Shown here: in pieces, positions 7,082 through 64,000 of the stretch
Layout: each line of letters begins with the position of its first letter
How positions within the stretch are numbered: the first letter of the stretch is position 1
NCBI GenBank assembly: GCA_000091205.1
Contig: AP006492.2
Length of the DNA stretch: 64,000 nucleotides
Origin: Cyanidioschyzon merolae
Lineage: Eukaryota
Strand: one strand, 5' to 3'
Made by a program: the position numbers and the translations under genes
The notes under the pieces: generated by a model
The model's input: the letters and a program-made list of their open reading frames with translations, nothing else
Told to the model about the DNA's origin: nothing
The model's database searches: none

Positions 7082-8758
7082 TTGCGAGCTTCAGTCAGCA
7101 CAGCAGCACAAGAAACGCAGCGTAGCGCGACGGGATCAACGGCTCGTGAGCGGCAGCGACGCGTCCTCGTGTGTCCATTGCCCGCGACAACTGGTGTGTG
7201 CGGGTGTTGGCGTCGACGCGCCCAAGGAGCGGGTACACGACACCTATGTGGAAAGTTGTTGAAAGCAGTCCTTTTGAGGTAATTGCGGACGCACCTGCTA
7301 CAGTTGGGGTCTCGTGCCAGTGTCAGGAACACACCAGCGTTTGGGAGATTCTTGTTTCTCCTTCCTATCTGGCTTTACAAAAACCGGTGTCTGGTACCTG
7401 TCGAGCCACGTAGTTCGCACTGGGAAGATGCTGCAGATGGGAACCTACAAGTCCCGATTCCGCCGCTTCTAGGTGTTGTCAACGCTTACCACGCACAAAT
7501 GCAAGCTACGGTCCACGCAGTGCTCGCCATCTCATCTTCTTTATCTACAGCTCTGGTGCGCCATTCGCAACGGTGACACTGACCTATAAGCAGGTGCTCC
7601 CATTCGTCCACCGAACCTCCTGCTCCTCCTCATCCGGATATCGTCTAGTCGTGTTTGAAGGCTTCCATGATGTTTCCGAATATGCCTCTAACGGGTGCAG
7701 AGGGCTTCCCGCGAGGCGCTCCTTCGATGGCGCCTATCGAGGATCCGCTCGGCGCCTATACCCTGTCCGATGCACCCGCAAGCGCTCGCTCTACCATTCG
7801 AAGGGGATTTGTGGAATGCGATATGGTCCTTGATGAAAGAATTATCGGAAGGAAAATCCAGACTGGAGAACACGAGTCGAGACGTTTGAACACGTCTAGG
7901 ATTCCATCGCTCAAAGCGCAGACGCACGCTCTACGGAAAGCGATCACTGTGCTGATGAGCGCTCGATTCCAAGACGCTTTCGATGCAAACAAAAAAGGCG
8001 AGGGCCTCTTACAGCTTGTTACGTGCTAGGCACCATGCCGCTGTCGGATGCAGATTCATCGACTGTCACAGAGGTGGATTTGTCTGTCGGACGGAAGTGA
8101 TGACTCGACGTGACGAATTCGGTGAACGCTCAGCATGAGCGTACGACCAGGTCGTCAAGAAGCGTCACCGAGTTTTCTCATGGTCGATCCAGCCGCGCGA
8201 ATTCCTGTGCCCTCGAATTACCTCGGAACAGAAAGATCGACACCTCGAAGAATGCATGATGTTAGCGTGTCACTCGCAACGACAGGACAAACATGGAGGC
8301 TCGGACGTATGACTGGATGATCCTATCGCATCATTTACGCGCGCGTGTTCGAGGTCGTCGTGAATCCTCGTAATCCCCATGACGTAAAGAATGCCAGGTG
8401 CAGTGCGTCGAAGCAGCGACTCCGAGAACACGTCTGAAAATCCTGTAACTGCCTTCGATTCCATAATCTTTCTCGCTGTACTTTGACTGTCGAGGCTGTA
8501 GATCGAGCAAAGTCCAGAAAAGGGATCAATAAGAACGAACACAGCACGTAACTCCATGTACTATGCTCAGCTAACGCGGATCTAGTGGGTAACACAAGTT
8601 CGATGCATCGATCCCGGATCTAGACTTGTTTGCAACTGCATGTACCGTCGACGCCATGAGCGTCGCGCATTGACACTGAGCAGCGCGTGGCGAACGCGAG
8701 GTCGCATCCCGAGATGCACCGCGATCACTCATGGGAATAAGCAAGGCGAATCGATAAT

Positions 8759-11047: not shown

Positions 11048-11880
11048 ACCAGACTTTCGAGCTGTGAACACGAGGGCCAATCGAGAACAGGTTGACTGGT
11101 GCGATTTTCCAGAGACGGGCACGCCAGACCGCTATGGACAGCTTATGCACTCATCCTGGTCATACGTGGACTCGTTCTGGGCTATGCTGAACCCAGCCGC
11201 AGTGTTTGCTGCATGTCGAGATCGCATGTTCGATGCTCGGCGAACCAAGTGCCAACATGGCCATCTGCTGGGAAACCGCCGGAACCCGTTCGAGCAAAGC
11301 GCATACCCGGTGCCCGAGTAAGAAGGACTCGAACATCGCTAGCCGATCAGGCGTCGTGCGGCATCGTTCCATGCACTCGTGATAAACCCGAGTATTCCGG
11401 CCGATTACTTTTCGGCCACGTTCAGGGTCCCAGTCTGTGCCATTGCATAAGCGTACGCGCGCCCATTGCAGACGCTACGCTGGTCTCCTGTGCGCTTCCG
11501 ATCGAGCTGCCACGCGACTGGAATCGAGTTGTTTCGTAACGAACCATGTAGAGCAGACGGGGATATCAAACCGTTGCGTTCCTGCGGTATCCTGTGAAGC
11601 AACGAGCAACAGCGTGGATAATGTACCGATGCTGTGCGTCCTCGCTCTTTTACAGGATTTGATGCATGCATCCATGTCCGTGCGTGTGCATGTGTATGCG
11701 TGCTGCGACACGCTCTCCTGATGCCCAGCCTGCACCTCAGTCGCTGCCATCCGATCTGAGCACGCAGCGGCTGTCGGGGACACGTATGTGCCTGCGGTAA
11801 CGCGAAATTGCTTGCAACGGCCGTCTAGCGCGCAGATTGATTCCGCAGTACGGTGTCGTGATGCGAGGGGCAAGCGCACA

Positions 11881-11881
11881 C

Positions 11882-11932
<51 letters not shown>
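11881..11932. repeat. (CTGT)13 tetranucleotide microsatellite.
   Basis: Direct reading shows ctgt repeated 13 times. Complementary GACA/AGTC-type runs are at 24734..24768. Confidence 0.95.
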
Positions 11933-11934
<2 letters not shown>

Positions 11935-12067
11935 GCATGCATACGGACGCTGATCACCACGAAACCGCTATCCCTATCCAGCAACAAATATTGGGACAAC
12001 ATCCACTCCGCGCTCGCTTACAATGCAGTGCCGCAACGATAAAACCGGGGAAAACGGGTGTGCACGC

Positions 12068-16469: not shown

Positions 16470-17512
16470 AAGACAGACGAAGACGAAGACGCCGCGCTGA
16501 GCGTGTGGATCGCCCGATGAAGCACACGGCAGCCGTCGCAGTACGTTTCAATCCACAGGACAGATCCAACGATCTGAACGAAAAGCAGATGAAGCTGCAT
16601 ACGTTCTTCAGGGCTCCGTGCGAGCGCGAGTCGAGCACCTTGATCGCCAGCGCGCATGCGAACGACTGAAACAGCGGCATCGCGACCAATCTCGACGCTC
16701 TGAATACCGCATCGAGCAGCTAATCACGCTTTGATCGCTTCACGCTGACACTTCGTGTACGTCCAAATGGCTCATGTGGACGTCCTTCGGCAGGCCGACA
16801 CGGAACCGCGTCCGAGTCGCCGACGTTTTCGGCTTTATGGAGACCGGCAACGGACTTTCGCCAACCCGGTCCATGAGTTGGAAAAAGCAAATCACCGAAA
16901 AGCCGTATGCACTGGTGGTAGCCTACGGCAATGCGCGTTCTGTGACGCCTGAAGACAGCGCTCGTTTTCGCTCGACGAGCGCGTGCAACCAGTGCAGACA
17001 TTGATGCCGCACGATTCCCATCAACGAATTCCGGGCTTCGACGTACGCACACCATGAGCACGGGTGCACGCTAGATCTGCCTGAGACACAGAGCATGGAA
17101 CAGAGCCGAATACAATGGATGCTGTATTGTGAACTGAACAAGCGTCAAATGGCGCAGTACCTGGAAAAGGAGACGCATCCTACGATGTGATTCCGCGAAG
17201 AGATGATGCGCGCAACCACGAGATGCACCGAAAGCTGAACGCCTCAATCAAGATCCGGAAGCATCTCGTGGTTTCGGAGGATTCAGCGGTATTCTGTGGA
17301 GCGACACTTGTGAGCGCATCGTTTTGTATACAGTATATGCATTGTGTTGGCACGTCGAAGACTTGCAGGGAGAAAAATCAGCCGTCATCCGGGCTGGCAT
17401 TGGACGCTTGCCTGGAGCAGCGCGCATCTATAATGGGGTCCAGCAAGCAGGCAAGCATGAATCGCCATATATACATTGGGAATGGTCTCCCTGCGTCATT
17501 GGTGAACGATAA
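16470..17512. repeat. Interspersed repeat family A, copy 1 (~1.04 kb). About 97% identical to 32103..33142, direct orientation.
   Basis: The ORF pairs are duplicated exactly or nearly so, for example 16755..16952 and 32386..32583, 17187.. and 32818... Sharp similarity boundaries at 'agacgaagacgaagacgccgcgctgagcgtgtgg' on the left and '...ggtgaacgataa' on the right. No recognisable protein domain. Confidence 0.8.
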
Positions 17513-24265: not shown

Positions 24266-25492
24266 CGTTGTTGCGTGATGCTGCACTTGTGTGCACGGAG
24301 GATCGCATTCTCTGTTGAAATTGGAGCCATGTTTTTTGCTCGATCTTTCTTGCCCTGGTGTGTGGGAAACAGATCCAAAATCATAGACGAGTGCTCTAGA
24401 GCATGTGTGCAATCGATAACGGATCCGCTGCGAAAAGTACAGCGCTCTCGGAAAACATCAGTCGCTGTGGCGGCGTCACGGGGAGCGCTCTGGCGCAGAG
24501 CGAGCGTAGCCTTCCGGTCCTCGTGCGAGAAATTTAGGTTATTAACCCATATCAACTTGAAAACGACGATCCGCGTGCACGACGCAGCTGGCGAAATGAA
24601 CGGGCACGAGCAGCTGGCCTACTTGCGTGGCTCAGCAGGGCAGTACCTGCCGAGCCGTCGCCGGGAACGGCTGATGGCCTCTACGGGATTGCTGGAGTCG
24701 AAAAACGCATATTCCCGAAGCCGCCAGCCAGCTAGTCAGTCAGACAGACAGACAGACAGTCAGTCAGTAGTTGCATGCCTTGCTCAGGACTAGAGAGAAA
24801 GGGCTTCGTTGCCACGGGAATACAAAGATCTGGCTGTGCTCCTCTTGATCGCAGCCGAGCCTGAGACATCCTGCGACGCAACCGATGATGGCGCTTGAGC
24901 CTATTGCGCTGTTCATTCACTGCGGACAAACCTCTGGGTCTGTGCCTTGCAGGCGCCCCGGCGATGAAAACGAACTGCTGGACTTGTGGGTGCGTTCAGT
25001 GCGCGGGCCTGCACGGTGTCATCTCGACCAGTGTTCGCAAACACGCGTTCTTCGGCTCAATCGCAGGATAGAGCGCGCGAATGCGACCACATCTGTTTAT
25101 CAAGGTCGCATTTGATCAATGATCTGCTTGCGGGTAACGACTTGAGGACAGGGGTGCACTCTATCAGGATCTGGTCGAAAGCGAAAGCCTTTCGTAGGAG
25201 ATGTGTATCCAAGCGTCTGCGAAAATGGAATGACGGTCGACGCATGCTGCGATCTGGAGCTTCGGTTCATGTGAAGCGCGCTCAGTATCAGCTGAACGCC
25301 CGTAGATAGCGTCGCCCGCAGAATCCAACAGAAAGCACCACTGTCGTTGAATTGAAAACGCGGCTCACATTGGTGAATGCACGAGCATCATCTGTGGTCC
25401 ACGAAGCATCGGAGTAACGAAGCCCGATTCTCGAGCGAATCCTTTGCAACGCATTAGGGATTTTGCGTCGTCCTCTAAGCACTTGGACGCAT

Positions 25493-27971: not shown

Positions 27972-29375
27972 ACAACCGGTGTCAGCGTAGAATCGAATGC
28001 TGAACTGCTGGCTCTGTCCGCGCCTCGCGATTATTTTCCGAAATATTTGAAGGTGTACAGCCTCTGCATTGGAAATGCAGCAATCAGGGCCCATGGATGC
28101 TGACGTGGATTAGGATTCGCGGTCATCGTTTCACATCGGCTTCTTCAACACTTTGCTGCTGGAATTCGATACGTGGTACCGGAATCAAGATGATTATCGA
28201 TATGGTCCAACAAGGGCGTCCCTGGAATCAACGATCCCGTTACTTAATGGATACGCGCAAGCCTGTACGCTTCTCCTCAACGTATGAGTACCATGCTCGA
28301 ATAAAGTATGCTTCAGGTTTTCGATTTCTCTCTCTGTGCGTGTGTGTGTGTGTGTGTCAAGGCAACTCGTGAGCGCACCTATTCCGTCCATTGGATTGCC
28401 GACGGGAAAGCGCCGCGACGTCGTCCCTGCACGACTCGCTTACGAGCGCACGCCCGAAACTCACTACATGCTTCACGTCAATAACCGATTCCATTCGCAA
28501 GACAAATCATGCTTTCGTTCAAACCAACGATGAAACGTCATCCGATGCCAGCACCATCCCTCTTGCGGGATACGCTCCGCGACGCTCCCGACTCTTCTGC
28601 GTGCCCGGCAACGAGTTTCGCGCTCAAAGGGGCGTCATCGCCGCGGCCCCTTCCAGTGGAGCATGCGTCGCAACTTTACACGAAGGAGGCGTACACGGAC
28701 CGGAATTTACCAAGTGGTTCCCCCAGCCTGCATATCCCTCCCGGTACTTGTCTGTTCATGGAGAGCACCGGGCCCCAAAAAGCATCCACCGAGCTGGACA
28801 GCGTGCGCTTGCGTACACAGCGGACAGCGAACTCGACGAGGTGATCGCCCAGAGCAAGCGCGTCCTCTTCGAACACGGCACCGGGCATGGAATCGGAGGC
28901 GGACCCTTAGGGAAGCCCACCTATAGCCCTCCATCGCATGTGCGGGGCGATGTGTCAGGCCTTGAGGCGCGGTACTCCAGCGCTCTTAGGCGCAAATGCA
29001 GTGTGTCGATGCGAAAACGTGGCCACAGCCAGTTGTCACCGATGCGAATGACGCTCTGTGGCGGTGTACAAACATAGATGAGCGCTGGAAGCGAAGCGTG
29101 GACTGCATCCACCGCCTGTGCATGACATGCGTGGACAACAGCCAGATGCATCGAACTCGAGACTTGAACGCTTATAGGAACGTCCGCCGATCTCCGGCAA
29201 CCGAGGTTGACGGACCGGAGAGGCCGGTGTATCTAAAGCCGGCGCCTAGAGAGAAAGACGGCGAAAAAGCAGTCCCAACGCCAGTCGCGAACAGCTGGCG
29301 TTGATGACCCTGGGATGACACTCCTCCGTAGCTTTAGAGTACGCGCCCGTATTCGTGGACTTGTTTCATACTGCT
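27972..29375. repeat. Interspersed repeat family B, copy 1 (~1.4 kb), carrying an intact 228-aa ORF (28391..29077) and a (GT)n microsatellite at ~28336-28358.
   Basis: About 98% identical to 40007..41477. The 228-aa ORF 'MDCRRESAATSSLHD...' is present in both copies with only 2 aa differences. Boundaries at 'acaaccggtgtcagcgtagaatcg' on the left and '...cgtattcgtggacttgtttcatactgct' on the right. Confidence 0.8.
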
Positions 29376-30528: not shown

Positions 30529-32102
30529 CCAAAATCGGCCGATGCACGTCTGCCGTCAGCGGTGCATCCAGACAGCTGTGCAGTGCATCGAGTGTTGTCG
30601 TACGCATTGCCCGTCCGTCTCCCTATTATCGGCAGGTGCAGGGGCATGAGATACCGAGGTAAATACTGAACGAGTGTTCCGGATAGATGAACCTCAGGTC
30701 ATATGAGCGAACTGTATAAGGATACCGCCAGACTCGCCGGACGTGCAGACCCAGCAGGGGCAAGCGCCTCACCATGATTCCTCTCGTTGCACGTCGTCAG
30801 TCGCGTTCGGTCTCTGTGCGGCGAGCGCACCAGTGTTCTAGGCGTCGTCACGGGTACGGACAGCAGGCTCGGCACCTCGAGGATCGTGTGAACGAATCCG
30901 TTTCTTCGAAGGGCAGTATGGATGGTAGAGGCCGCTGGAGCTTGGCGGTATCGTGCAGAACGATAGATGCCTCCCGTAGATGCAGATCACTAGTGCACAG
31001 TTGGGGATCTCTGCTCAGTGTAAACGCTTCGTAGATACGAGAAGAGTAAAAGCTATATGAATGACTGTAGCCTTGTCAATCCATTCCAATGCATACATTC
31101 ATCACGAGATACTACCAAAGACGCCACAAACTGTGAATTCTGCGTACGCTTGATACATATGCCCATGCAGAGACATGCATGGACCATGACACAGGCATGC
31201 TTCAGTGCGAGACGCTCTCGCGCTGATCATCACGCACATGCTTTCGCACTGGAATGAGAATGCTTACCAAAGGAGCGACGGGTTCTCCTCTCGCTCAATG
31301 AGAATTTATTCGGAGGGCATGGTGAATCTGTGTAAGTGTACTCGAAGAATGACAAAACGCTTTTCGTAAGCAAGAAACAAGCGCGAATGACCATGTCATT
31401 TTCCTGATGCTAATGGATACTTGTGCTCGCCTACAGATCCCAAAACGGACAGGGTCGAAAAACACTTCATCCGGCGTCGGAGCACCCGTCATGGATTCCA
31501 GTTCCTACCTGGCTATGTCCTCTTTTTAGACTACGTCGCTTTCCATCACTTAATGGCTGTTAAAGAATACGCAGAGAAGATCGCCATTGAGCCGCTCTTC
31601 GTGCCACCAGGTTCTCTCCTGTTCAATCGAATCGTTGTTGTCTTTTCTGTTGCCTAATGCAGTTTTTACGCTCGCAAATTCATACGTATGTCGTTCGCGT
31701 CCGTTGAACCATTCTTCGATGAGTCGCCCTCTACCCTAGCCTTCACACCTCGTCCCGCAAATGTTCATATGAGTTCTCCAGATACAGGGCTACGAGCTAT
31801 CCGCGATTCTCTGTAATCCGTCGAGCAAACATTCGTTCGACGATACACATGATGCTCGCGACAGAGGACGCAACACTCCCTGGCCGTAGGATCAGAGATT
31901 CGAACACGTGCTTTCCAGAAAGTGTTGACGCGATGCCGCATCGCGTAGGCAGTTGAAAGAATGCTCGAGTCCAGGTTCTAGACAATATGAAACACACCTC
32001 AGTAACCAAAACGATACCGGAGTTGATCTCGAGCACTTCATGAAGCGCACCCCGTGGGCGTTGGGTCCCATCGCACAGGCCTAGGAAAACGGGGACGGAC
32101 GA

Positions 32103-33142
32103 GAGACACGAAGACGAAGACGCCGCGCTGAGCGTGTGGATCCCCCGATGAAGCACACGGTAGCCGTCGCAGTACGTTTCAATCCACAGGTCAGATCCAA
32201 CGACCTGAACGAAAAGCAGATGAAGCTGCATACGTTCTTCAGGGCTCCGTACGAGCGCGAGTCGGGCAGCTTGATCGCCAGCGCGCATGCGAACGACTGA
32301 AACAGCGGCATCACGGCCAATCTCGACGCTCTGAATACCGCATCGAGCAGCTAATCACGCTTTGATCGCTTCACGCTGACACTTCGTGTACGTCCAAATG
32401 GCTCATGTGGACGTCCTTCGGCAGGCCGACACGGAACCGCGTCCGAGTCGCCGAAGTTTTCGGCTTTATGGAGACCCGCAACGGACTTTCGCCAACCCGG
32501 TCCATGAGTTGGAAAAAGCAAATCACCGAAAAGCCGTATGCACTGGTGGTAGCCTACGGCAATGCGCGTTCTGTGACGCCTGAAGACAGCGCTCGTTTCC
32601 GCTCGACGAGCGCGTGCAACCAGTGCAGACATTGATGCCGCACGATTCCCATCAACGAATTCCGGGCTTCGACGTACGCACATCATGAGCACGGGTGCAC
32701 GCTAGATCTGCCTGAGACACAGAGCATGGAACAGAGCCGAATACAATGGATGCTGTATTGTGAACTGAACAAGCGTCAAATGGCGCAGTACCTGGAAAAG
32801 GAGACGCATCCTACGATGTGATTCCGCGAAGAGATGATGCGCGCAACCACGAGATGCACCGAAAGCTGAACGCCTCAATCAAGATCCGGAAGCATCTCGT
32901 GGTTTCGGAGGATTCAGCGGTATTCTGTGGAGCGACACTTGTGAGCGCATCGTTTTGTATACAGTATATGCATTGTGTTGGCACGTCGAAGACTTGCAGG
33001 GAGAAAAATCAGCCGTCATCCGGGCTGGCATTGGACGCTTGCCTGGAGCAGCGCGCTTCTATAATGGGGTCCAGCAAGCAGGCAAGCATGAATCGCCATA
33101 TATACATTGGGAATGGTCTCCCTGCGTCATTGGTGAACGATA
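32103..33142. repeat. Interspersed repeat family A, copy 2. It lies ~280 bp to the left of Fanzor-like element copy 1.
   Basis: See copy 1 at 16470..17512. About 97% identity over ~1.04 kb. Confidence 0.8.
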
Positions 33143-33432
33143 ATCGTGTCACGCTATACGCTTTCGCGGAATATCTCGTGGTGCACACCCTGCTTCGCCA
33201 ACAGCTGGCTCCATCTCGCTGCTGACTCGTGCGACCTTCGCGCCACCCCAATGCGATCTCCAGCTGCACAAACACATACACATACACACACTGGAACACC
33301 CGTTCCACACAGGTGTGCTGTCCGCAGACGCCGGCTGTCCGACTGCTACCGATGTGCTCGTATTCACCACCGTTCGTGCGATCTGCAGCGGACGGGGCGC
33401 TATATCATCGGGCATCGTCGATGAAATGTAGT

Positions 33433-33454
33433 GGCGGGCGGAAAACCGCCCGCC
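33433..33454 (-). ncRNA. Candidate omega-RNA scaffold 3' hairpin of Fanzor-like copy 1.
   Basis: The plus strand reads 'ggcgggcgg aaaa ccgcccgcc', a perfect 9-bp GC stem with a 4-nt loop. It abuts the nuclease stop codon at 33455-33457 and sits ~9 nt inside the element boundary. This matches the TnpB/Fanzor arrangement in which the omega-RNA overlaps the 3' end of the ORF and ends at the element edge. Confidence 0.35.
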
Positions 33455-35052
33455 CTACACGAAATGTCTCCCACTGACGTGCAGACGCCTCCCAGTCTTT
33501 TTGGACCGGCCGCCTACTAAGGGTTTCAACTTTTTCTCATATAATTCCACCTTGAGAGGTTCTTCCGCGAAATTCTCTCTGGTCAACTCTGGAGGTCTTC
33601 TTTCTATCACCGCGCACCTCCTTATATTGATAGCGGCGTTAAAGTCTTGGTTCACAAACTTCATACGTTTCTTGCTATTGATTGTACTTCCGGATGCACC
33701 TAGTCCAGAAACTTTCGCTTTCCTTCCCATGTGCTCTTCTGTTAGCGCTCCGTACTTTTGTATATCTTCAGGGCTCCTCTGGCACTTTTTCATCCCCATC
33801 CTCTGAAGTGTACATCCCAACTCATCGTGTATAGGCGATTTCCGGAACTCATCGATCGGTATCGTAACGAAACGCCTGCGCACTCCTTGTATGTTCTTGT
33901 TGACGGCGCTGGTTGACACGCTTTCTGGGTCATCCAGTGCCCTGATCCATACGCTACTAAAAGCCTCTTACTCTTATCTTCCTTTCAGGCGCTCAACTGA
34001 TTGAAGAAATCCGCGGTCGCCCGCTGCTTCCCACAGTATAGATTAACGCGCAGACGAGCCCACCGGGGCTTGGCGTACTCTTTCCACGGCGCTTCCCAGT
34101 CAGCAACACGGACTTTCGTGAATTTCAGAAAAGTTCGAAAGTCCGCTCCTCGGCTCGTCACCTCGCTCATAGCTTCCAGGTGCTCGTTCGCTCCTGCATT
34201 CCATGTCTCAACTTTCTTCCTTGCATTCTTTATGCCCGATTCTCGACAGTATCTTGCTCTCGAGAGCTTGAAAAGACGCATGTCTTTCTGACGCAAGTCA
34301 CCGTCACTGCCATCTTCTGCACGCTTCGGTGCTGCGACGGCTATATTCATCGTGTTTCCGGGGTCCACGCCGACGACAAAGTCACTCTCATGCACCTCCT
34401 GCGTCGCAGGATCCGCCTCTTTCTTTTCTTCGTGCTTCGTCAGGGGCGAAGCCGAAGGCACGATAGGACGATCCGCCTTCAACCGCCGACAGTGTGCACA
34501 CATGGACACTCCATCGGTTTCGATCGTGCCCGTGAATACCCTCTGCTTGCTCACTTTGCGACGTTTGAAATAGAAGATATTCTTCCAGTACGTCTCCCGG
34601 CTTTCACCGGTGAACTCCGTCTTCCTTCCATCGAACTGCGGACAGGTCTCCTCCATGACGCCGTAGAGGACTCTGGAGTCGATAATCACATAGTGCGACT
34701 TGATGCTGCACAGCGGAGCGACGTAGAAGCGCTTACCCAGAAGCGCGGCCTTCTGTCGCTCCGGCTCTTCATTTGCTTTCTGACTCGGCTCCATCTCCGC
34801 CTTGCGCTCGAGTTTTCGGTTCAGGAATCCGAAATAGCGCACAATGGGGCGATAACATCTTTCTTCATCTCTTTTCATATCTGGTACCTTTTCCGCTCGA
34901 TTCGCCAGCGCCAAGACTGCACGGTGCTCTTGAATAGCCGCACGGATTACAGAAGCTTCACTCAGGCACCGGCGTGACGTCTTCATGTCGACAAATTCGA
35001 TCTCCTGTACGTTCTGGCGATCGTTCGTGATGCCGTCGATGATGGCCCACAT
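33455..35052 (-). CDS. TnpB-like, Fanzor-type RuvC nuclease, copy 1. It is split into ORFs 35052..33985 and 33919..33455 in different frames. Either a 41-nt GT-AG intron (33957..33997) joins them or it is a frameshifted pseudogene.
   Basis: The N-terminal ORF of 355 aa contains RuvC-I 'VGVDPGNT'. The C-terminal ORF contains a candidate RuvC-II Glu in 'VTIPIDEF' and RuvC-III '[10 protein letters not shown]'. Splicing 'gttgag...ttttag' out of the minus strand joins '...ADFFN' to '[22 protein letters not shown]...' in frame. Confidence 0.6.
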
Positions 35053-35914
35053 CGCGCGGCGAGAGAGGCCGGGGGGTCCAGCGCAAACATGGCGCGTATC
35101 ATGAAGCGTTCGAGGTTCACGATCATATCGTTCTTCAGGTGCGTGAGGTGCTTGACTGCCCCGCTGGTGTAAACACGCAAGTCACCCCTGTATCGAGTAA
35201 CGTTGAAGCGGTATTCAGCATCATTTTTCATGCCGGGCATCCACTCGCTCATTTCGCCGCGACGTTTCCCCTATAGCAAGCATGAGGTGACGAGTAAAGG
35301 TCTTGTAGAAGGCACGTTCCGAAACCTCAGCTGTTTCCAAGTGCGTCACGTCGCGATACATCTCCCTCGTCATATGCATCGGTCCTCAAGAAGCCTTGCA
35401 AACACTCCCGGAGTTCGACTCGGCACGGTTTCTGATGGCATCTCGCAACTTTTCCCCGTGCGGAGCAGTAGTATGCTTAAGAAGACAGGCTCTCACCACC
35501 ATCTCGTCGTATCGCCGTCTTTCTTGCAGCCTTTATTGTCGGACCTCCCGCTTTTGCTCCTTCGTCCTCTCCTGTTCTTCTGAACTCGGCACCGTTTTTT
35601 GTTTTTTCTCTGCCGGCTGTCGACGCTGTGCCCCCTGGATCCTCCATTTCCTTTTCCATGACTTTCCTTTTTTACATGTTTGGAAATGAGACTTCTTTGA
35701 ACGCTTCTGCTACAAACCGCGAAAAATCACTTGAAAACAGTTACTTGAGGGTTAGTACACAACTGAGGTGAAGGACTGTACTCTGCTACGACTACAACGC
35801 AAATACGACCTGTACGGTAGAGTAACAAGAAAACGATTAGGAAAGATCGCGTTTCCCTTCAACGGCGAGATGCGCGTCGTATCTGCTGGCTACCAGGCAT
35901 GGAGGTGGGCGTAT

Positions 35915-36590
35915 CGAGCGCATTATTTAGAACAAAGAACAGAGACTAACAACTTACTAGCAACGATATAACGATTTCTATCCCCATCTACGATGAACAT
36001 TAAAAGGGGAAAACTTTCCGTATCTTCGGAAGTTTAACTTATGGGTGGAGGGTCCCGCAAGCCGGACTAGTCGTCAAGGCTAGTGCTTCGTGCTCTCCCT
36101 CGTGGAAGGCGCCATGATGAGAGCTGCACAGGTCGTCCAAAACGCAGTTTTTTCTGGGACTCGGAGAATGTATGCTGCGTCTGGGCACCGCCCCAGGTAG
36201 TAGTGGGCTTCTAGTATATCGCTTCGCGCTCTCGCAGGCAGAAGGCCTGCCTGCCCAGTTTCCAGGCTCCCGGAATGATAATCAGCCCTGAATCCGGGTC
36301 AAATGTACCATTCTTCGAGACGACGCCTTCACTGGTATGGCAAATCCGTTCTGTCGCTGTGCAGCATGCGCTCCAGCGGTTTAGGCGCTACGACGTGTGC
36401 TCAGTGTAGACACTCGGCGCACGATAGAGCATATGAAACGACCAGTATATCCGCGAGTAAGCTTGAGAAATGGAACTTGAAGATAGGTGCAGCATGATGG
36501 ACGCTTTCGCGAATGCCATCATCCATCCACTCCGAAATCTCGGATTTGTGGTCAATGTACACGCGTACCATCGATAAAAAATCAGCGGCA
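35915..36590. repeat. Diverged repeat family C, copy 1, about 70-75% identical to 59005..59680.
   Basis: Shared blocks include 'ctagcaac.agata...ctacgat.aac.tt.aaaggggaaa..tt' and 'gcgcacgat.gaacgtacagaacgaccagta.atccg.gag...ggaacttgaag...gatggacgctttc.cgaatg'. The minus-strand ORFs 36401..36697 and 59414..59668 share 'FKFH..LL.D.LVV.Y..SCA'. Confidence 0.55.
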
Positions 36591-38957: not shown

Positions 38958-40006
38958 ATTTCAAATAGGATTGCTTCTTTTACGGTCTGTTATAGTCCAG
39001 ACATGAGGAATCGCGACGGAGTGCCTCGACAGCTCGTGACGGGTACACGCTGCCTCCAACAAGGCGAATGCCTTCGTTCTGGTGCCCCGGCCACTGGGCG
39101 ATGGTGGCGTTTGCGTGAGGGCTATCGTCTGCGGCCGTGGCACCGAGTCCGCCGCTTTTGGTAAAGCGCCTGACTCTATGAGTGTCACTTTTGCTCGTCT
39201 CAGTGCGAAGCTGGGACCCCAAAGCAATCGGACTGCAATCGTTAACGACTTTGTTCTGCTTTAGACCGGGGAGCGTCGCTTTACTGTACGCACCGGCATC
39301 CGAGAGAGCCCAGCGGACGCTGGGCGGCTACGTGGTCCACCGAGCCAGGTGCACCCGAAACCAGCAGAACGTGTTTCGCAACCTGACAAACACGCCGCAC
39401 TGCGCCCCCAGCTTTGTTCTGGGAGCAGTTTGCACGCCGTGGTTACGAAGCCCTCTAACGCTGGTGTCGAGCTAGGTGTGGCGTCGGTCACATCGCTTGC
39501 ACTGCCTCACCGTTCCAGTAGAGCGTGCTCCTTCGAGAAGTCTGCCAGCGGAGCGTACCCTCGAACACGCTTTGGAGTGATACGGCTGTGTTTGCCGCTG
39601 CCGCTGCGCTCATGACTCCGAATTATCTGTGCGCACGGCATGGAAAAGATGCAGATGACTGAGTGTCAGTAGGACGCGTAAATGTGTGTTGTGGCTTTTG
39701 GAACTGGGAGGAGTAGTGCGCACTGCTGAACGCTTCCCCGGATGGGGGCAGCAGTCGCGCAAGCATGTCTCCCTGATTAGTGCAAAGGATGCAGCAGTTC
39801 TTGGGAAAGTTGCGTACATCGCAAACACAAATGTAAGCGCAAGTTGCGTCGCCGTTGATGAGTGCAACCGCATCGGGCGCTGACCCGTCTCCTACTGACG
39901 TCGGCGAGGTTCCCGTTGGAGTTATAGATGGCCAGTGCGCAGTTCCCATGCTGGATTTGGCCTGCGAAATCCATGGGAATAACGACAAGCGCTTTACAAC
40001 CGGTGT

Positions 40007-41477
40007 CAGCGTAGAATCGAATGCTGAACTGCTGGCTCTGTCCGCGCCTCGCGATTATTTTCCGAAATATTTGAAGGTGTACAGCCTCTGCATTGGACAT
40101 GCAGCAATCAGGGCCCATGGATGCTGACGTGGATTAGGATTCGCGGTCATCGTTTCACAGCGGCTCCTTCAACACTTTGCTGCTGGAATTCGATACGCGG
40201 TACCGGAATCAAGATGATTACCGATATGGTCCAACAAGGGCGTCCCTGGAATCAACGATCCCGTTACTTAATGGATACGCGGTACCGGAATCAAGATGAT
40301 TATCGATATGGTCCAACAAGGGCGTCCCTGAAAGCATCGATCCCGTTACTTAATGGATACGCACAAGCCTGTACGCTTCTCCTCAACGTATGAGTACCAT
40401 GCTCGAATAAAGTATGCTTCAGGTTTTCGATTTCTCTCTCTGTGCGTGTGTGTGTGTGTCAAGGCAACTCGTGAGCGCACCTATTCCGTCCATTGGATTG
40501 CCGACGGGAAAGCGCCGCGACGTCGTCCCTGCACGACTTGCTTACGAGCGCCCGCCCGAAACTCACTACATGCTTCACGTCAATAACCGATTCCATTCGC
40601 AAGACAAATCATGCTTTCGTTCAAACCAACGATGAAACGTCATCCGATGCCAGCACCATCCCTCTTGCGGGATACGCTCCGCGACGCTCCCGACTCTTCT
40701 GCGTGCCCGGCAACGAGTTTCGCGCTCAAAGGGGCGTCATCGCCGCGGCCCCTTCCAGTGGAGCATGCGTCGCAACTTTACACGAAGGAGGCGTACACGG
40801 ACCGGAATTTACCAAGTGGTTCCCCCAGCCTGCATATCCCTCCCGGTACTTGTCTGTTCATGGAGAGCACCGGGCCCCAAAAAGCATCCACCGAGCTGGA
40901 CAGCGTGCGCTTGCGTACACAGCGGACAGCGAACTCGACGAGGTGATCGCCCAGAGCAAGCGCGTCCTCTTCGAACACGGCACCGGGCATGGAATCGGAG
41001 GCGGACCCTTAGGGAAGCCTACCTATAGCGCTCCATCGCATGTGCGGGGCGATGTGTCAGGCCTTGAGGCGCGGTACTCCAGCGCTCTTAGGCGCAAATG
41101 CAGTGTGTCGATGCGAAAACGTGGCCACAGCCAGTTGTCACCGATGCGAATGACGCTCTGTGGCGGTGTACAAACATAGATGAGCGCTGGAAGCGAAGCG
41201 TGGACTGCATCCACCGCCTGCGCATGACATGCGTGGACAACAGCCAGATGCATCGAACTCGAGACTTGAACGCTTATAGGAACGTCCGCCGATCTCCGGC
41301 AACCGAGGTCGACGGACCGGAGAGGCCGGTGTATCTAAAGCCGGCGCCTAGAGAGAAAGACGGCGAAAAAGCAGTCCCAACGCCAGTCGCGAACAGCTGG
41401 CGTTGATGACCCTGGGATGACACTCCTCCGTAGCTTTAGAGTACGCGCTCGTATTCGTGGACTTGTTTCATACTGCT
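40007..41477. repeat. Interspersed repeat family B, copy 2. It has an internal ~70-bp tandem duplication at ~40201-40340 and a shorter (GT)n than copy 1.
   Basis: 'cggtaccggaatcaagatgatta(c/t)cgatatggtccaacaagggcgtccctg..' occurs twice in tandem here but once in copy 1. The 228-aa ORF 40493..41179 is intact. Confidence 0.8.
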
Positions 41478-48715: not shown

Positions 48716-49234
48716 TCAACAGAGCAGCACGCGTGTAGCAGCAACGACGCGTTCGTGCAGTCCGTAAATCCGATGCTTTCACGATCCGCTGGAATGCGGC
48801 GTGGTGCAGCGCGCTCGCGGGATCGCACCCCGAGATCCTTTCAGCTCGACGCCGGTGCGTCGGGCTATCTTCCATAATTGGACAAAACCTTCCTAAAAGA
48901 TCAGGGATCCCCAACGGTGCGCGGTGAAGCACCGATCATACCACGCCCTATCTCCAAGGTCCATGGTCCATAATTCTTCTCGGATACATTGGTCACTTTG
49001 TACGTTCTATCGTGTGCCGCGTATCTGCATTCCTGCATCGGTGATCGCGCCTATAGCGCCGTTACGGTCATAGCAGAGAGACAGGACGACGTTGGCGTAC
49101 CCCAGAGGACGTCGGCTCGAGATGGTAAACTGATACCCAGGCGCAGATGCCTCTCAGCCTTTTTTGACCGTCAGACTGCCATCAATTTCAGTTTATTCAG
49201 GCACGCTTCGAGACTGTGAGGCTGCACGAAGCAA

Positions 49235-49490
49235 GAGGATCGCGCTAGCCCCGAGGGTCTCGTCTCCAGCACCGCACATCATTTGATATTGATAGCGGCG
49301 TTGAAGACTCGGTTCACGAACTCCATGCATGTATTGCCTCTGGTGGTGCTCGCCAATGGAAGGAGTCCTCAAACTAGTGCCCTCAGTGCCATTTGCTGCT
49401 CTGTCAGCTCTCCGTGCTTTTCTATCGTCGAAATGCTCCGCTGCATTCTCCCCATCCCGATCTTTGAATGGTACATCCCAGCTCATCCCT
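49235..49490 (-). pseudogene. Degenerate relic of the Fanzor/TnpB-like nuclease 3' region, the third copy, about 75% nucleotide identity.
   Basis: The minus strand encodes '...LASTTRGNTCMEFVNRVFNAAINIK*' against intact '...[29 protein letters not shown]'. The RuvC-III Asp is replaced by Val and a premature stop follows. Plus-strand 49275.. 'atattgatagcggcgttgaagactcggttcacgaact' aligns to 33625.. 'atattgatagcggcgttaaagtcttggttcacaaact'. Confidence 0.6.
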
Positions 49491-54223: not shown

Positions 54224-55962
54224 TCACCGCCTCGTCTGGAGATGGAGGATGCACTTTAGTATCGAGAATGATGCCGTGCACGCGACCTCGGGTGACACTC
54301 GCGAACGCCGTTCAAAAGTCGAAAGCAGTCGCCAGCGGTTTACAGTAGTGGCGGCGAACGCGCCCAAGACAAAACTTCTCCAACTGACGTGCAGACGCCT
54401 CCCAGCCTTTTTGGACCGGCCGCCTACTAAGGGTTTCAACTTTTTCTCATATAATTCCACCTTGAGAGGTTCTTCCGCGAAATTCTCTCTGGTCAACTCT
54501 GGAGGTCTTCTTTCTATCACCGCGCACCTCCTTACATTGATAGCGGCGTTAAAGTCTTGGTTCACAAACTTCATACGTTTCTTGCTATTGATTGTACTTC
54601 CGGATGCACCTAGTCCAGAAACTTTCGCTTTCCTTCCCATGTGCTCTTCTGTTAGCGCTCCGTACTTTTGTATATCTTCAGGGCTCCTCGGGCACTTTTC
54701 CATCTCCACCCTCTGAAGTGTACATCCCAACTCATCGTGTATAGGCGATTTCCGGAACTCATCGATCGGTATCGTAACGAAACGCCTGCGCACTCCTTGT
54801 ATGTTCTTGTTGACGGCGCTGGTTGACACGCTTTCTGGGTCATCCAGTGCCCTGATCCATACGCTACTAAAAGCCTCTTACTCTTATCTTCCTTTCAGGC
54901 GCTCAACTGATTGAAGAAATCCGCGGTCGCCCGCTGCTTCCCACAGTATAGATTAACGCGCAGACGAGCCCACCGGGGCTTGGCGTACTCTTTCCACGGC
55001 GCTTCCCAGTCAGCAACACGGACTTTCGTGAATTTCAGAAAAGTTCGAAAGTCCGCTCCTCGGCTCGTCACCTCGCTCATAGCTTCCAGGTGCTCGTTCG
55101 CTCCTGCATTCCATGTCTCAACTTTCTTCCTTGCATTCATTATGCCCGATTCTCGACAGTATCTTGCTCTCGAGAGCTTGAAAAGACGCATGTCTTTCTG
55201 ACGCAAGTCACCGTCACTGCCATCTTCTGCACGCTTCGGTGCTGCGACGGCTATATTCATCGTGTTTCCGGGGTCCACGCCAACGACAAAGTCACTCTCA
55301 TGCACGTTCTGTGTGGCAGGATCCGCCTCCTTCTCATCTTCATGCTTCGTCACGGGCGAAGCCGAAGGCACGATAGGACGATCCGCCTTCAACCGCCGAC
55401 AGTGTGCACACATGGACACTCCATCGGTTTCGATCGTGCCCGTGAATACCCTCTGCTTGCTCACTTTGCGACGTTTGAAATAGAAGATATTCTTCCAGTA
55501 CGTCTCCCGGCTTTCACCGGTGAACTCCGTCTTCCTTCCATCGAACTGCGGACAGGTCTCCTCCATGACGCCGTAGAGGACTCTGGAGTCGATAATCACA
55601 TAGTGCGACTTGATGCTGCACAGCGGAGCGACGTAGAAGCGCTTACCCAGAAGCGCGGCCTTCTGTCGCTCCGGCTCTTCATTTGCTTTCTGACTCGGCT
55701 CCATCTCCGCCTTGCGCTCGAGTTTTCGGTTCAGGAATCCGAAATAGCGCACAATGGGGCGATAACATCTTTCTTCATCTCTTTTCATATCTGGTACCTT
55801 TTCCGCTCGATTCGCCAGCGCCAAGACTGCACGGTGCTCTTGAATAGCCGCGCGGATTACAGAAGCTTCATTCAGGCACCGGCGTGACGTCTTCTTGTCG
55901 ACAAATTCGATCTCCTGTACGTTCTGGCGATCGTTCGTGATGCCGTCGATGATGGCCCACAT
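54224..55962 (-). CDS. TnpB-like, Fanzor-type RuvC nuclease, copy 2, with the same split-ORF structure and the same putative 41-nt intron at 54867..54907. The copy-1 stop codon is lost, so the ORF reads 50 codons through the element terminus into the flank.
   Basis: The ORFs 55962..54895 and 54829..54224 differ from copy 1 by a few residues: K for M at 23, N for S at 31, 'LTKHEEKK' becomes 'VTKHEDEK', E to N, K to M, and 'QRMGMKKCQ' becomes 'QRVEMEKCP'. '[14 protein letters not shown]' is retained. Confidence 0.6.
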
Positions 55963-56788
55963 CGCGCGGCGAGAGAGGCCGGGGGGTCCAGCGCAAACAT
56001 GGCGCGTATCATGAAGCGTTCGAGGTTCACGATCATATCGTTCTTCAGGTGCGTGAGGTGCTTGACTGCCCCGCTGGTGTAAACACGCAAGTCACCCCTG
56101 TATCGAGTAACGTTGAAGCGGTATGCAGCATCATTTTTCATGCCGGGCATCCACTCGCTCATTTCGCCGCGACGTTTCCCCTATAGCAAGCATGAGGTGA
56201 CGAGTAAAGGTCTTGTAGAAGGCACGTTCCGAAACCTCAGCTGTTTCCAAGTGCGTCACGTCGCGATACATCTCCCTCGTCATATGCATCGGTCCTCAAG
56301 AAGCCTTGCAAACACTCCCGGAGTTCGACTCGGCACGGTTTCTGATGGCATCTCGCAACTTTTCCCCGTGCGGAGCAGTAGTATGCTTAAGAAGACAGGC
56401 TCTCACCACCATCTCGTCGTATCGCCGTCTTTCTTGCAGCCTTTATTGTCGGACCTCCCGCTTTTGCTCCTTCGTCCTCTCCTGTTCTTCTGAACTCGGC
56501 ACCGTTTTTTGTTTTTTCTCTGCCGGCTGTCGACGCTGTGCCCCCAGGATCCTCCATTTCCTTTTCCATGACTTTCCTTTTTTACATATTTGGAAATGAG
56601 ACTTCTTTGACCGCTTCTGCTACAAACCGCGAAAAATCACTTGAAAACAGTTACTTGAGGGTTAGTACACAACTGAGGTGAAGGACTGTACTCTGCTACG
56701 ACTGCAACGCAAATACGACCTGTACGGTAGAGCAACAAGAAAACGATTAGGAAAGATCGCGTTTCCCTTCAACGGCGAGATGCGCGTC
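54343..56788 (-). mobile_element. Fanzor/TnpB-like element, copy 2 (~2.45 kb), 98-99% identical to copy 1 and in the same orientation 20.9 kb away.
   Basis: Collinear with 33425..35878 at a constant offset of 20910 nt across the gene. Indels occur only in the 3'-terminal ~40 nt. The flanking DNA is unrelated. Confidence 0.65.
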
Positions 56789-56946
56789 CCGTCTCATGCC
56801 CGCCAGGTATCCCGGGTGCGCCTAGAGTGCGCGCCGCGTGCGCCACCGCAAGCGTTACAAATCGAAACACGCGCCGCAGCGCCAACGAACGCGCCATGCT
56901 TCATGCTTAGCGTTTTCGGGGGCTCACGTACTAGACGCCGCACAGT

Positions 56947-59004: not shown

Positions 59005-59680
59005 ATCTATCGAAAGAACAGAAATCAAAAACTGATTAGCAACAAGATAAGAAATGCTTTCCACCTCTACGATAACCGTTGAAAGGGGAAAGATTTCTGT
59101 AGTTTCGAAAGTTTGGCTTCTAGGCGCAAGGTCATGCGAGCCGGACGAGTCTGCGGGGCTAGCGTTTCATGCTTCCCCCAGCGGCACTCGCTGAGGCGAC
59201 ATCAGATCAGCACATCCGCAACGCCGTTCATTCTGGCATCACAAGTCGTTGGAATGCGTCTGGGCGTCGCCCTGGTCGCAGTGGCTTCCTAGCATTCCGC
59301 TTAGTGTCGCCACAGGCAGTAAGTCGATCTGCGGAGCTTGCAAGCCCCCATAATGATTATGTTACTCGGACCCCGTGTCGAATGAACCACGTCTCGAGTC
59401 GACGCCCTCAGTGTCATGGCAAAGCCGTTCTGTCTCCGTGCTGCATCCGCACGATCAGTATTGAGGCGCTCCTACGGGTGCTCATGGCAAGTTTGGCGCA
59501 CGATGGAACGTACAGAACGACCAGTACATCCGAGAGCAGGTCATGGAACTTGAAGGTGCTGTTCAGCGTGATGGACGCTTTCCCGAATGTCAATTTCCAT
59601 CCCGCAATCTGGGATCCATGGTATATGTACTGAACCTGTAAAACCAAAAAGACTGGAATCAGTCGCAACGATGACTCAAA
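59005..59680. repeat. Diverged repeat family C, copy 2.
   Basis: See 35915..36590. Confidence 0.55.
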
Positions 59681-60279
59681 CCCGATTCCATGATCTTTCT
59701 ACATGCGAACAGAAGAAATGGGAGCCGCTGGAGACGTATCTCATAAACGGTACCATGGTACTGTCGAATCAAGTTCCTTCAACCACCAAAACCAGAGGAG
59801 GATTTATCTTTCGAGCTGACTCAGTTATTTCAAATAACCACTTTGGTAAAGTTTCTGCGTGAGCTCAAGAAGAGGCCATCAAAGGACGACATCCGATTTC
59901 TTTCCTCGTCTATCCAGGATCGCGTATGGCTTCGCCCACCAGTTGCCTTGAAACAAAAAGGTCGACAAATGAATGAATCCGACATTTGAGCACACTACAC
60001 ATATGGTAAGGAGAAGAACGGAGGCTTGCACGTATGCATTGGATAATATCATTGATTATTTTTCGAAAAACTGTACGAGTCCATCGAGAATCATCTCAAC
60101 TCCACTGACGTAAAGAAATCCATCGGCGACTCGTCGAAGCAGGCACTCTCCGAAATCACAACCGAGAATCCGAAACCCAGGGATGCAATCGAAATCCCGG
60201 ATCGCTGCAACACGCATCTCCATGCTGTACATCTTGCGAACAACTTAGAATGAATTGAACGATTATACCAGAGCAGCCG

Positions 60280-63751: not shown

Positions 63752-64000
63752 AGAATGCATAGTTTTAGCACACTACGCATAAGAAAACGATAATCTAGGA
63801 GGTTTCTACTTTTGCATCGGATAATGCAATGGGTTAATTTACGAGCCCTTGCTCGAGTGCGTCGCGAATCATCTTGACACCGGTGACGTAACGAATGCCA
63901 GCGGCAGACAGTCGAGGGCGCCACTCCGAAAACACGACCGAGAACCCTAAATCGACTAGTGAACCCCTGCATCCTTTTTGCTGCGTTTGGAATGTCGAGC

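Follow-up and report, generated by a model that had tools for sequence, protein, structure and literature searches.

Organization of the locus

The DNA analyzed here is a 64,000-nt stretch (hereafter, the window) of chromosome 10 of Cyanidioschyzon merolae 10D. Five of the eight flanking ORFs that were looked up are exact C. merolae 10D proteins (BAM80265-BAM80282) from a chromosome record of 839,707 bp, which places the two copies described below in the nuclear genome and bears out an initial annotation that had pictured the host as an intron-poor, plastid-bearing protist. The same annotation had described two near-identical copies of an element in the same orientation and with unrelated flanks, and this description holds: the window contains a direct repeat of 2,428 nt whose two units, 21 kb apart and each with its gene on the minus strand, are 98.7% identical (32 mismatches and no indels), and the genes beside one unit differ from those beside the other. 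The mismatches are clustered (in copy A coordinates, at 34372-34443, 33780-33799, and 33456-33472), and mismatch-free runs within the unit extend over 420 to 500 nt. Three repeat pairs in the window are each ~98.5% identical, with offsets of 15.6, 12.1, and 20.9 kb; the two other pairs are unrelated or only distantly related to the one studied here, and the neighboring pair represents a second Fanzor-like pseudogene.

The repeat had been taken for a discrete element of ~2.45 kb with left edges at 33425 and 54343. Both of these positions fall within a diverged, family-homologous tail, and homology to a known transposon family (see below) runs on beyond both edges of the repeat in both copies. 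Thus, the repeat, here termed the block, is an internal segment of two longer and structurally different copies, A and B (Table 1).

Table 1. Features of copies A and B and related sequences in the window
Feature	Position	Strand	Basis and remarks
Copy A, near full-length CMe-1A	33437-36563	-	blastn: consensus 12-3125, 82.9% over 3,133 nt
Copy B, 5'-truncated CMe-1A	54306-56824	-	blastn: consensus 657-3169, 83.6% over 2,524 nt
Homogenized block, copy A	33451-35878	-	Consensus ~692-3114; 98.7% to 54361-56788
Homogenized block, copy B	54361-56788	-	Counterpart of the copy A block, on the same evidence
5' module of copy A	35934-36563	-	Consensus 12-636, 81% to consensus; TE-N2_CMe-like; no homology to copy B
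Solo 5' module, TE-N2_CMe-like	59013-59629	-	Consensus 16-636, 79%; 2.2 kb upstream of copy B
Third CMe-1A remnant, fragmentary	49256-49486	-	Consensus 2737-2971, RuvC-III region, with stops
Fanzor1 pseudogene, copy A	33455-35659	-	ATG at 35659, TAG at 33455-33457; alignment with consensus ORF, tblastn with intact P0003
Fanzor1 pseudogene, copy B	54365-56569	-	Lesions at 56518, 56445, 56298, 56132, ~55986, 54897, and 54787
RuvC-I motif	34351-34380 (B: 55261-55290)	-	D aligns with D484 of alignment A3 and with DPGR/DPNK of PpFz and SpuFz
RuvC-II motif, VTIPIDEF	33845-33868 (B: 54755-54778)	-	E aligns with E656 of A3 and with DEFRTS/DEYKTS of solved Fanzor1 proteins
RuvC-III motif	33626-33655 (B: 54536-54565)	-	D aligns with D725 of A3 and with NRD of solved Fanzor1 proteins
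GC hairpin, copy A	33433-33455	-	GGGCGGGCGG-TTTT-CCGCCCGCC directly after the stop codon; expanded first family 3' hairpin
Conserved noncoding family 3' end, copy B	54302-54365	-	Alignments of family ends

Copies A and B belong to the CMe-1A family

By their sequence, both stretches are decayed copies of CMe-1A, a Fanzor1 transposon known from the C. merolae genome. As described by Bao and Jurka (2013, Mobile DNA 4:12), this family comprises ~150 copies that are ~80% identical to a consensus of 3,169 bp, which lacks terminal inverted repeats (TIRs) and encodes a 734-aa Fanzor1 protein; CMe-1 is counted as a founding member of Fanzor1, intact copies were noted, and the 5' module of CMe-1A is 95% identical to a separate repeat, TE-N2_CMe. 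We took the consensus from Additional file 2 of that paper and compared it by blastn, accepting as members those sequences with at least ~80% nucleotide identity to it over most of its length, as is the case for both A and B. Both the presence of this family in C. merolae and its Fanzor1 nature have been known since 2013, and what had been proposed as a new member is ~83% identical to the consensus published in that year from the same genome.

The two copies differ at both ends. Homology of copy A to 80 family copies from metagenomes runs from 36563 down to 33428, and an alignment of 53 copies shows it to be truncated after GCCACTAC, so that it stops ~44 nt short of the family 3' end; its 5' junction is crossed by independent contigs (L005-L008). 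Copy B lacks the 5' 656-nt module and retains the complete family 3' end, with homology reaching up to 56844 and a 3' terminus at 54302-54306; independent metagenome contigs (L095, L096, and L099) cross both of its junctions at 99.1%. Copy A carries the ~635-bp 5' module shared with TE-N2_CMe, neither copy has TIRs, and the solo module upstream of copy B is 68.5% identical to that of copy A (35934-36560).

A search of metagenomes from hot springs with eight close relatives as queries recovered 292 stretches related to the family. The 5' flanks of full-length copies are T-rich (..ATTTTTT up to the junction), which is only a hint toward a TAM; no target site duplication could be resolved at the ends of 22 distinct family copies, where the flanks are T-rich only. 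Across the family, the 3' end is fixed and the 5' modules are alternative.

Relationship of the encoded protein to Fanzor1

Searches of the PDB with a profile of 24 family proteins recovered the Fanzor1 proteins PpFz1 (9cf0; E = 3.2e-20), SpuFz1 (8gkh; E = 1.3e-15), and GtFz1 (9cer; E = 2.9e-7) and no other matches. The repaired window protein on its own yielded nothing significant against the PDB (SpuFz1, E = 0.85). Pfam searches with this protein and seven relatives recovered neither OrfB_IS605 nor OrfB_Zn_ribbon at threshold, the best match being Cas12f1-like_TNB at an E value of 0.23. We further used an AF2 model (pLDDT 76.8) of P0003, an intact relative that is 55% identical to the window protein. 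The model matched the SpuFz, PpFz, and GtFz structures with E values of 6e-16 to 4e-13 and TM scores of about 0.5 to 0.73 (for SpuFz 9ceu/8gkh, 6e-16 to 9e-15 and 0.59 to 0.73), with Cas12 and TnpB far behind. The Fanzor1 fold (REC/WED/RuvC) is thus found in the relative rather than in the ORFs of the window. Of the comparisons that the initial annotation had suggested, that with the SpuFz1 structure was positive, those with the OrfB models were negative, and that with ISDra2 TnpB (8h1j) gave a distant match only (Foldseek E = 0.06). Accordingly, its assignment of a Fanzor/TnpB-like protein can be narrowed to Fanzor1 on the basis of the profile and the predicted fold of a relative.

The three RuvC motifs that had been picked out as bearing the D/E/D triad are the right ones. 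The same peptides occur in both copies (VDPG, IDEF, and QDFNAA), and the corresponding residues (D484, E656, and D725) are invariant in the 24-sequence alignment A3 and align with those of solved Fanzor1 proteins. By the position rule given for the Fanzor glutamate in a review (PMC13565253), the RuvC-II Glu is at the Fanzor-type position, adjoining the former zinc finger site. The zinc finger itself (CxxC...CxxC; TNB domain), a common feature of Fanzor1 that was not used to define the family, is absent: the CMe-1 consensus has DEFRTSYTHHELGC...RGLLALVSTT as against CPKC/CPRC and C..C in PpFz and SpuFz. The whole algal clade, which corresponds to Pfam PF26935, lacks these cysteines; that entry is an uninformative DUF8286, and a literature search found no paper naming it. 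As had been noted from the sequence, the element contains no transposase gene, and we saw no second gene or other protein domain in it.

Both genes are broken by the same lesions

We scored the reading frames of both copies against the published 734-aa intronless consensus ORF and intact relatives. Neither window copy has an uninterrupted ORF. In copy A, there are four frameshifts (+1 at 35608, +1 at 35222, +2 at about 35072-35076, and -1 at 33877) and three premature stops (TAA at 35535, TGA at 35388, and TGA at 33987), in addition to an in-frame 3-nt deletion at 33679. Copy B shares all seven lesions and has also lost the normal stop codon. Two of the seven separate RuvC-I from RuvC-II and RuvC-III. 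As they read, the two copies cannot make a full-length Fanzor1 protein. The pair had been described as intact and apparently still mobile, with a spliced product of ~530 aa; the shared disabling lesions, which split the RuvC domain, and the lack of introns speak against each part of this description. The breaks are lesions rather than introns because relatives read straight through these positions. Introns that would span the breaks near 33985 and 33877 were specifically rejected: the consensus and intact relatives keep homologous residues there, so that the first break is a nonsense mutation and the second the loss of 1 nt. Sequencing errors were likewise rejected, since the lesions are common to A, B, and independent metagenome assemblies; the sole polymorphic one is a 2-nt homopolymer insertion at 35071-72 that is absent in contigs L099 and L092. 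Long ORFs are kept in only ~8 of 81 related loci, and intact family ORFs are found in contigs L001/L013, L014, L023, L033, L040, and L047.

The 3' end and a candidate guide RNA

The noncoding 3' end of copy B contains a hairpin (GGGCGCG..CCGCC), the motif ACTACTGTA, and a terminal hairpin (GCTTTCGAC-TTT-TGAACGGCG) and closes with ..GGCG TTCG; judged by other Fanzor1 elements, it is a candidate for the end of an omega/fRNA scaffold. Its fold has a z-score of +0.6, and that of the 125-nt 3' region of copy A has a z-score of -4.0. In the family 3' hairpins, which were drawn by hand, pairing is possible in ~80% of cells, and covariation is not significant, being no better than in shuffles. A search for a conserved omega-RNA structure with RNAalifold on 31 3' ends gave -4.4 kcal/mol and next to no covariation. 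Neither Rfam nor tRNA scans yielded any hit in the window.

Origin of the near-identity of A and B

A three-way alignment of A, B, and the consensus revealed a mosaic. Over consensus positions 700-3085, A and B are 98.9% identical to each other, and each is 83.5% identical to the consensus. On the 5' side (657-699), the A-B identity falls to 66%. It is again 66% on the 3' side (3086-3125), where B is 92.5% and A is 73% identical to the consensus. Throughout, the segments outside the block stay in register with the family alignment. This mosaic of identities, together with the different 5' and 3' ends of A and B, is the signature of gene conversion and not of fresh transposition. We consider it likely that A and B are old, decayed CMe-1A insertions whose interior was recently homogenized by ectopic gene conversion. 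They would be separate insertions, A with a full 5' end and a truncated 3' end and B with a truncated 5' end and a complete 3' end; the ~2.4-kb common interior of one would recently have been overwritten by the other through ectopic (nonallelic) conversion, leaving ~35 to 45 nt of the original, diverged homology at each block edge. We infer conversion from the mosaic pattern only, since the wild contigs of locus B (L093-L101) all already carry the homogenized block; no unconverted or empty allele of either locus was present among the contigs found through the flanking genes, and donor and recipient are not distinguishable from the data. SNPs were discarded as proof of concerted evolution because sites common to A and B of strain 10D but absent from wild B fit ancestral states equally well.

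The initial annotation had favored recent transposition of a 2.45-kb unit, that is, two discrete insertions of a solo, nonautonomous Fanzor element mobilized in trans. The 98.7% identity, the common orientation, and the unrelated flanking genes are what such insertions would produce, and past mobility of the family is clear from its ~150 copies and the 292 metagenome stretches. A third variant of the block, differing by ~1 to 2%, is present in a hot spring metagenome (contig L092, protein P0001) and also speaks for mobility, though it is probably the B-locus allele seen in L099; further young copies of the block may exist elsewhere in the genome and would favor mobilization in trans. Against this stand the block edges, which are internal to family sequence that is diverged between A and B yet in register with the consensus, and the different ends of the two copies. 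Moreover, with the block 16.5% off the consensus and carrying seven lesions, it is an already dead copy that would have moved, and at least one conversion event would still be required for the mosaic of copy A. We regard this scenario as improbable. An origin of A and B in one larger segmental duplication, which the annotation had itself named as a possible refutation, or in an assembly artifact that placed one repeat twice, is scarcely credible. The similar ~98.5% identity of all three repeat pairs would be compatible with it, and metagenome assemblers do misjoin across repeats (contigs L002-L004 are chimeric), but the offsets of the three pairs differ, as do the genes flanking A and B, 32 differences between A and B are fixed, and independent contigs span B with both flanks or cross the 5' junction of A.

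If ectopic conversion homogenized the two copies, a nuclease might have driven it: one locus would have been cut by an intact, RNA-guided Fanzor1 encoded in a further CMe-1A copy, and the second locus would have served as the template for repair. TnpB/OMEGA nucleases provide a precedent, as according to a review (PMC13565253) they promote the restoration of their elements through break-induced gene conversion. A small number of family ORFs do survive intact, intact copies were already noted by Bao and Jurka, and the conversion tract spans nearly all of the homology shared by A and B. However, nothing observed points to a cut, a matching guide, or an active enzyme, and no nuclease has to be invoked for ordinary ectopic conversion of two 2.5-kb repeats separated by 21 kb. 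The two other repeat pairs in the window are also ~98.5% identical, which points to a general recombination process. We therefore hold homing of this kind to be very unlikely, and there is equally little reason to believe that the homogenization of A and B, and perhaps also that of the second Fanzor-like pseudogene pair, is the footprint of Fanzor-induced double-strand breaks rather than of spontaneous ectopic recombination. Were that so, a surviving intact Fanzor1 of C. merolae, a haploid alga in which homologous recombination is efficient, would still act as an RNA-guided homing nuclease on members of its own family.

Implications

On the preferred reading of old copies homogenized by conversion, the near-identity of two repeats does not by itself testify to recent transposition; compared with a family consensus along their length, they show instead the concerted evolution of old copies. 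Being pseudogenes, A and B do not qualify as candidates for a new programmable nuclease. An intact family member would encode, in its only gene, a Fanzor1 protein whose RuvC D...E...D triad would cut DNA, guided by RNA from the 3' end of the element; such RNA-guided nuclease activity is suggested by homology of the family to SpuFz1, PpFz1, and GtFz1. The consensus or the intact metagenome relatives (e.g., the ORFs in L001/L013 and L014) are thus better starting points for tests of a red algal Fanzor1. Points that may interest the specialist are the loss of the zinc finger cysteines in the DUF8286 clade, the combination of different 5' modules with one fixed 3' end, and the T-rich flank of full-length copies.

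Comparison with known systems

At the family level, we found nothing that distinguishes A and B from CMe-1A: they agree with it in the single-ORF layout, the lack of TIRs, the ~635-bp 5' module of copy A, and a divergence matching the ~80% identity reported. The differences are that both copies are degraded and that their homogenization is a local detail absent from the published description. In comparison to the experimentally characterized Fanzor1 nucleases SpuFz1 (8gkh, 9ceu), PpFz1 (9cf0), and GtFz1 (9cer), the D/E/D residues are aligned and the Glu lies in the Fanzor-typical DEF(R/K)TS motif, whereas identity in the structural alignment is 12 to 15%, the algal clade lacks CxxC...CxxC, and the window copies are pseudogenes. 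The prokaryotic TnpB proteins of IS200/IS605 and IS607 are comparable in the distantly similar fold of the RuvC core, in the single-gene element, and in a conserved 3' end that can form hairpins. The C. merolae elements differ from them in having neither the Pfam OrfB domains nor TnpA, in encoding a protein of about double the length that carries a helical extension at its N terminus, and in residing in a eukaryotic host.

CMe-1A copies in the window and their reading frames

Bao and Jurka (2013; PMC3627910) described one Fanzor1 family in Cyanidioschyzon merolae, CMe-1A, with ~150 copies, each ~80% identical to a 3169-bp consensus, and with no TIRs and a single-exon 734-aa ORF, some copies being intact; over its 5' 635 bp it matches a separate repeat, TE-N2_CMe, at 95% identity. 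The consensus sequence was taken from Additional file 2 of that paper and aligned to the window (see the table below). Since it aligns both to the near full-length copy A, whose 3' end is cut off, and to the 5'-truncated copy B, the CMe-1A identification is direct. Judged by this alignment, both copies belong to a transposon family that was published for this genome in 2013, and both have decayed to pseudogenes; the family at these loci is already known, and the initial annotation's proposal of a new member falls. No TIRs were found in the element, and its other ORFs gave no domain match. The proposed host, an intron-poor plastid-bearing alga, is indeed the red alga C. merolae 10D: G+C in the window is 51-58%, its long ORFs contain no introns (they include PAN2-like, Nramp, class I aminoacyl-tRNA synthetase, RMND1, IspH/LytB, geranylgeranyl reductase, EB1, and G-patch proteins), and of eight looked up, seven were in the protein collection, five as exact matches to C. 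merolae 10D proteins BAM80265-BAM80282.

Lesions were called from a three-way alignment of copy A, copy B, and the consensus ORF (consensus 906-3110); tblastn with an intact relative, P0003, gave the same picture in both copies, and the relatives and the consensus keep homologous residues, with no break, through every lesion position. The gene had been described as intact and spliced. Both copies carry the same frameshifts and premature stops, and the supposed splice junctions are really a nonsense codon (LSA-stop-KED versus LSALKED) and a 1-nt deletion (KECA/RRF), read through in the relatives and the consensus. Because the TGA at codon 557 and the -1 frameshift fall between RuvC-I and RuvC-II, no active nuclease is possible, and both copies are, as read from their frames, dead. 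Long reading frames are kept in only ~8 of 81 related loci, most family members elsewhere being likewise decayed. Wild alleles in two metagenome contigs (L099 and L092) lack the 2-nt homopolymer insertion at 35071-35072 and have a 421-aa ORF (P0001) that still stops at the shared TGA; the insertion is either a polymorphic lesion or an assembly difference in a C-run.

Features of the CMe-1A copies and other repeats in the window (lesion coordinates are those of copy A)
Feature	Position	Strand	Detail
Copy A	36563-33437	-	consensus 12-3125, 82.9%
Copy B	56824-54306	-	consensus 657-3169, 83.6%
Solo 5' module	59629-59013	-	consensus 16-636, 79%
CMe-1A fragment	49486-49256	-	consensus 2737-2971, 78%
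Small inverted CMe-1A piece	48947-49126		consensus 84-262, 71%
Frameshift +1	35608	-	both copies
Premature stop TAA, codon 42	35535	-	both copies
Premature stop TGA, codon 91	35388	-	both copies
Frameshift +1	35222	-	both copies
Frameshift +2	~35072-35076	-	both copies
Premature stop TGA, codon 557	33987	-	both copies
Frameshift -1	33877	-	both copies
In-frame 3-nt deletion	33679	-	both copies
RuvC-I peptide	34351-34380	-	both copies
RuvC-II peptide VTIPIDEF	33845-33868	-	both copies
RuvC-III peptide	33626-33655	-	both copies
Block (A / B)	33451-35878 / 54361-56788	-	2428 nt, 98.7%
Second repeat pair	16471-17512 / 32102-33143	+	98.5%
Third repeat pair	27972-29375 / 39996-41477		98-98.7%
89-bp tandem duplication in third pair	40192-40362		
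(CTGT)n microsatellite	11869-11936		
Imperfect (CAGA/CAGT)n tract	24720-24779		strand opposite to (CTGT)n
Weakly similar segments	8119-8444, 59934-60175, 63623-63951		68-69%

Mosaic identity of the two copies

Self-comparison of the window recovered the near-identical interior of the two copies (the block) as a direct repeat with 32 substitutions and no indels, which cannot have arisen by chance; the reported repeat pair is real. Its near-identity breaks off at 33451 and 35878 in edge alignments. Family homology, judged from 80 metagenome family loci and the consensus, reaches past both block edges in both copies, so that the element had been mis-delimited. Just 5' of the block (consensus 657-699), A and B are 66% identical to each other and 77% and 73%, respectively, to the consensus; inside it (700-3085), 98.9% to each other and 83.5% each to the consensus; and 3' of it (3086-3125), 66% to each other and 73% and 92.5% to the consensus. 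Upstream, the TE-N2-like module continues in A and B ends; downstream, B reaches the family terminus (..GAACGGCG at 54306) and A halts after GCCACTAC (33428-33437). The block mismatches cluster at 34372-34443, 33780-33799, and 33456-33472, with mismatch-free runs of 420-500 nt between them.

Recent transposition of the block as a discrete unit to an unrelated site, as initially proposed, is the wrong reading of the repeat pair: a fresh insertion would leave no diverged in-register homology at the edges, and the block lies inside longer diverged family homology in copies whose ends differ. Nor is the pair part of a single segmental duplication, since the two further repeat pairs in the window, ~98.5% identical, have offsets of 15.6 and 12.1 kb versus 20.9 kb for A and B. 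As both copies are ~70-80% identical to all other family loci, independent decay would be expected to leave A and B equally distant from each other. The mosaic is the pattern expected of ectopic gene conversion, from which we infer that A and B were recently homogenised: a single sequence, already dead and 16.5% off the consensus, now lies within two insertions that differ in structure, with diverged in-register family homology left over at each block edge. The three repeat pairs of the window are about equally identical, a hint that the homogenising process is a general one.

Locus B and its junctions are present in wild populations (contigs L095, L096, and L099, at 99.1%), and independent contigs L005-L008 confirm the 5' junction of A. 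All independent contigs of these loci already carry the homogenised block; thus, no unconverted allele was found among them. Metagenome contigs L002, L003, and L004 jump between window repeat pairs, L002 joining the upstream flank of A to the downstream flank of B via the block. Most likely they were misassembled as chimeras across 98-99% identical repeats and are not structural variants.

Element ends, 3' tail, and other repeats

The family core is shared from consensus ~645 with a fixed 3' end, and at least three alternative 5' modules lie upstream (TE-N2-like, a "type I" spanning 420 nt or more, and a "type II" that is rich in A; L015, L064, L081, L071, L046, and others; window 56789-56844). 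Full-length CMe-1A and TE-N2-type ends are preceded by a T-rich flank (..ATTTTTT/CGATGAC..; L039, L052, L056, L081, and others; window ~36564-36576), and the 3' flank after ..GAAAGGCG starts with TT in 22 of 22 distinct 3' ends, mostly TT(T/C)G. These flanks could reflect a preference for an AT-rich TAM or target; at the ends of family copies, no TSD was resolvable.

The consensus ORF ends in GTC TAG, directly followed by a conserved ~85-nt tail with two hairpins (GGGCGSG..CSGCC and a terminal one that ends in GGCG) and the motif ACTACTGTA. Analogy with other Fanzor1 elements (PMC13565253) makes the tail and the end of the ORF a candidate coding region for the omega/fRNA scaffold. The analyses did not support this: RNAalifold found almost no conserved structure in family 3' ends, hand-drawn tail helices paired in 81% of cells, no better than shuffled controls, fold z-scores of the 3' regions were mixed, and Rfam gave no match.

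The second repeat pair is another, much more divergent Fanzor1-like pseudogene with stops and frameshifts; it covers the stretch from RuvC-I to RuvC-II and shares 34-41% aa identity with residues 484-688 of P0003 (tblastn E = 6e-20). Its downstream copy lies 285 nt from the truncated 3' end of copy A, in convergent orientation. Bao and Jurka (PMC3627910) list a single Fanzor family for C. merolae. The third pair, which contains a tandem duplication, has a 228-aa ORF with no Pfam match. The (CTGT)n and (CAGA/CAGT)n tracts account for the repeat finder's long "inverted repeats," and the three weakly similar segments may be another old dispersed repeat.

Relationship to known Fanzor proteins

A conceptually repaired translation of the broken coding region had no Pfam match, and its sole PDB match, SpuFz1, was colinear but non-significant (E = 0.85). 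In a large protein collection we recovered 98 relatives, one of them from the green alga Tetrabaena and nearly all from hot-spring metagenomes. They include several full-length proteins (580-750 aa) that share 55-62% identity with the window protein, and Pfam gave only the uninformative PF26935 (DUF8286). A profile of 24 relatives matched only three groups of sequences in the PDB, all Fanzor1: PpFz1 (Parasitella; E = 3.2e-20), SpuFz1 (Spizellomyces; E = 1.3e-15), and GtFz1 (Guillardia; E = 2.9e-7). The AlphaFold model of P0003 (mean pLDDT 76.8, pTM 0.73) matched the same structures in Foldseek (E = 6e-16 to 4e-13, TM up to 0.73), versus E = 0.015 or worse for Cas12 variants, Fanzor2, and ISDra2 TnpB. 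D484, E656, and D725 (P0003 numbering), invariant in the 24-protein alignment (A3), correspond to the three catalytic motifs first picked out and align with DPGR/DPNK, DEFRTS/DEYKTS, and NRD of solved Fanzor1 proteins. On the profile matches, the predicted fold, and these motifs, the family is Fanzor1, upholding the original Fanzor assignment. Each window copy has a single acidic repeat unit (34365-34441; 55275-55351 in B), of which P0003 has 4-5 (residues 376-471); the region is predicted to be disordered (pLDDT <50), and the densest A/B mismatch cluster sits there.

The algal clade that lacks the zinc-finger cysteines (A3; P0003 residues 656-725; window 33626-33868) corresponds to Pfam DUF8286 and includes Tetrabaena socialis TSOC_011071. 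As in other Fanzors, the RuvC-II Glu of the CMe-1A family is at the Fanzor-typical site, a few residues ahead of the zinc-finger site (PMC13565253); unlike in SpuFz1 and PpFz1, the canonical CxxC...CxxC cysteines are missing across the whole algal Fanzor1 clade.
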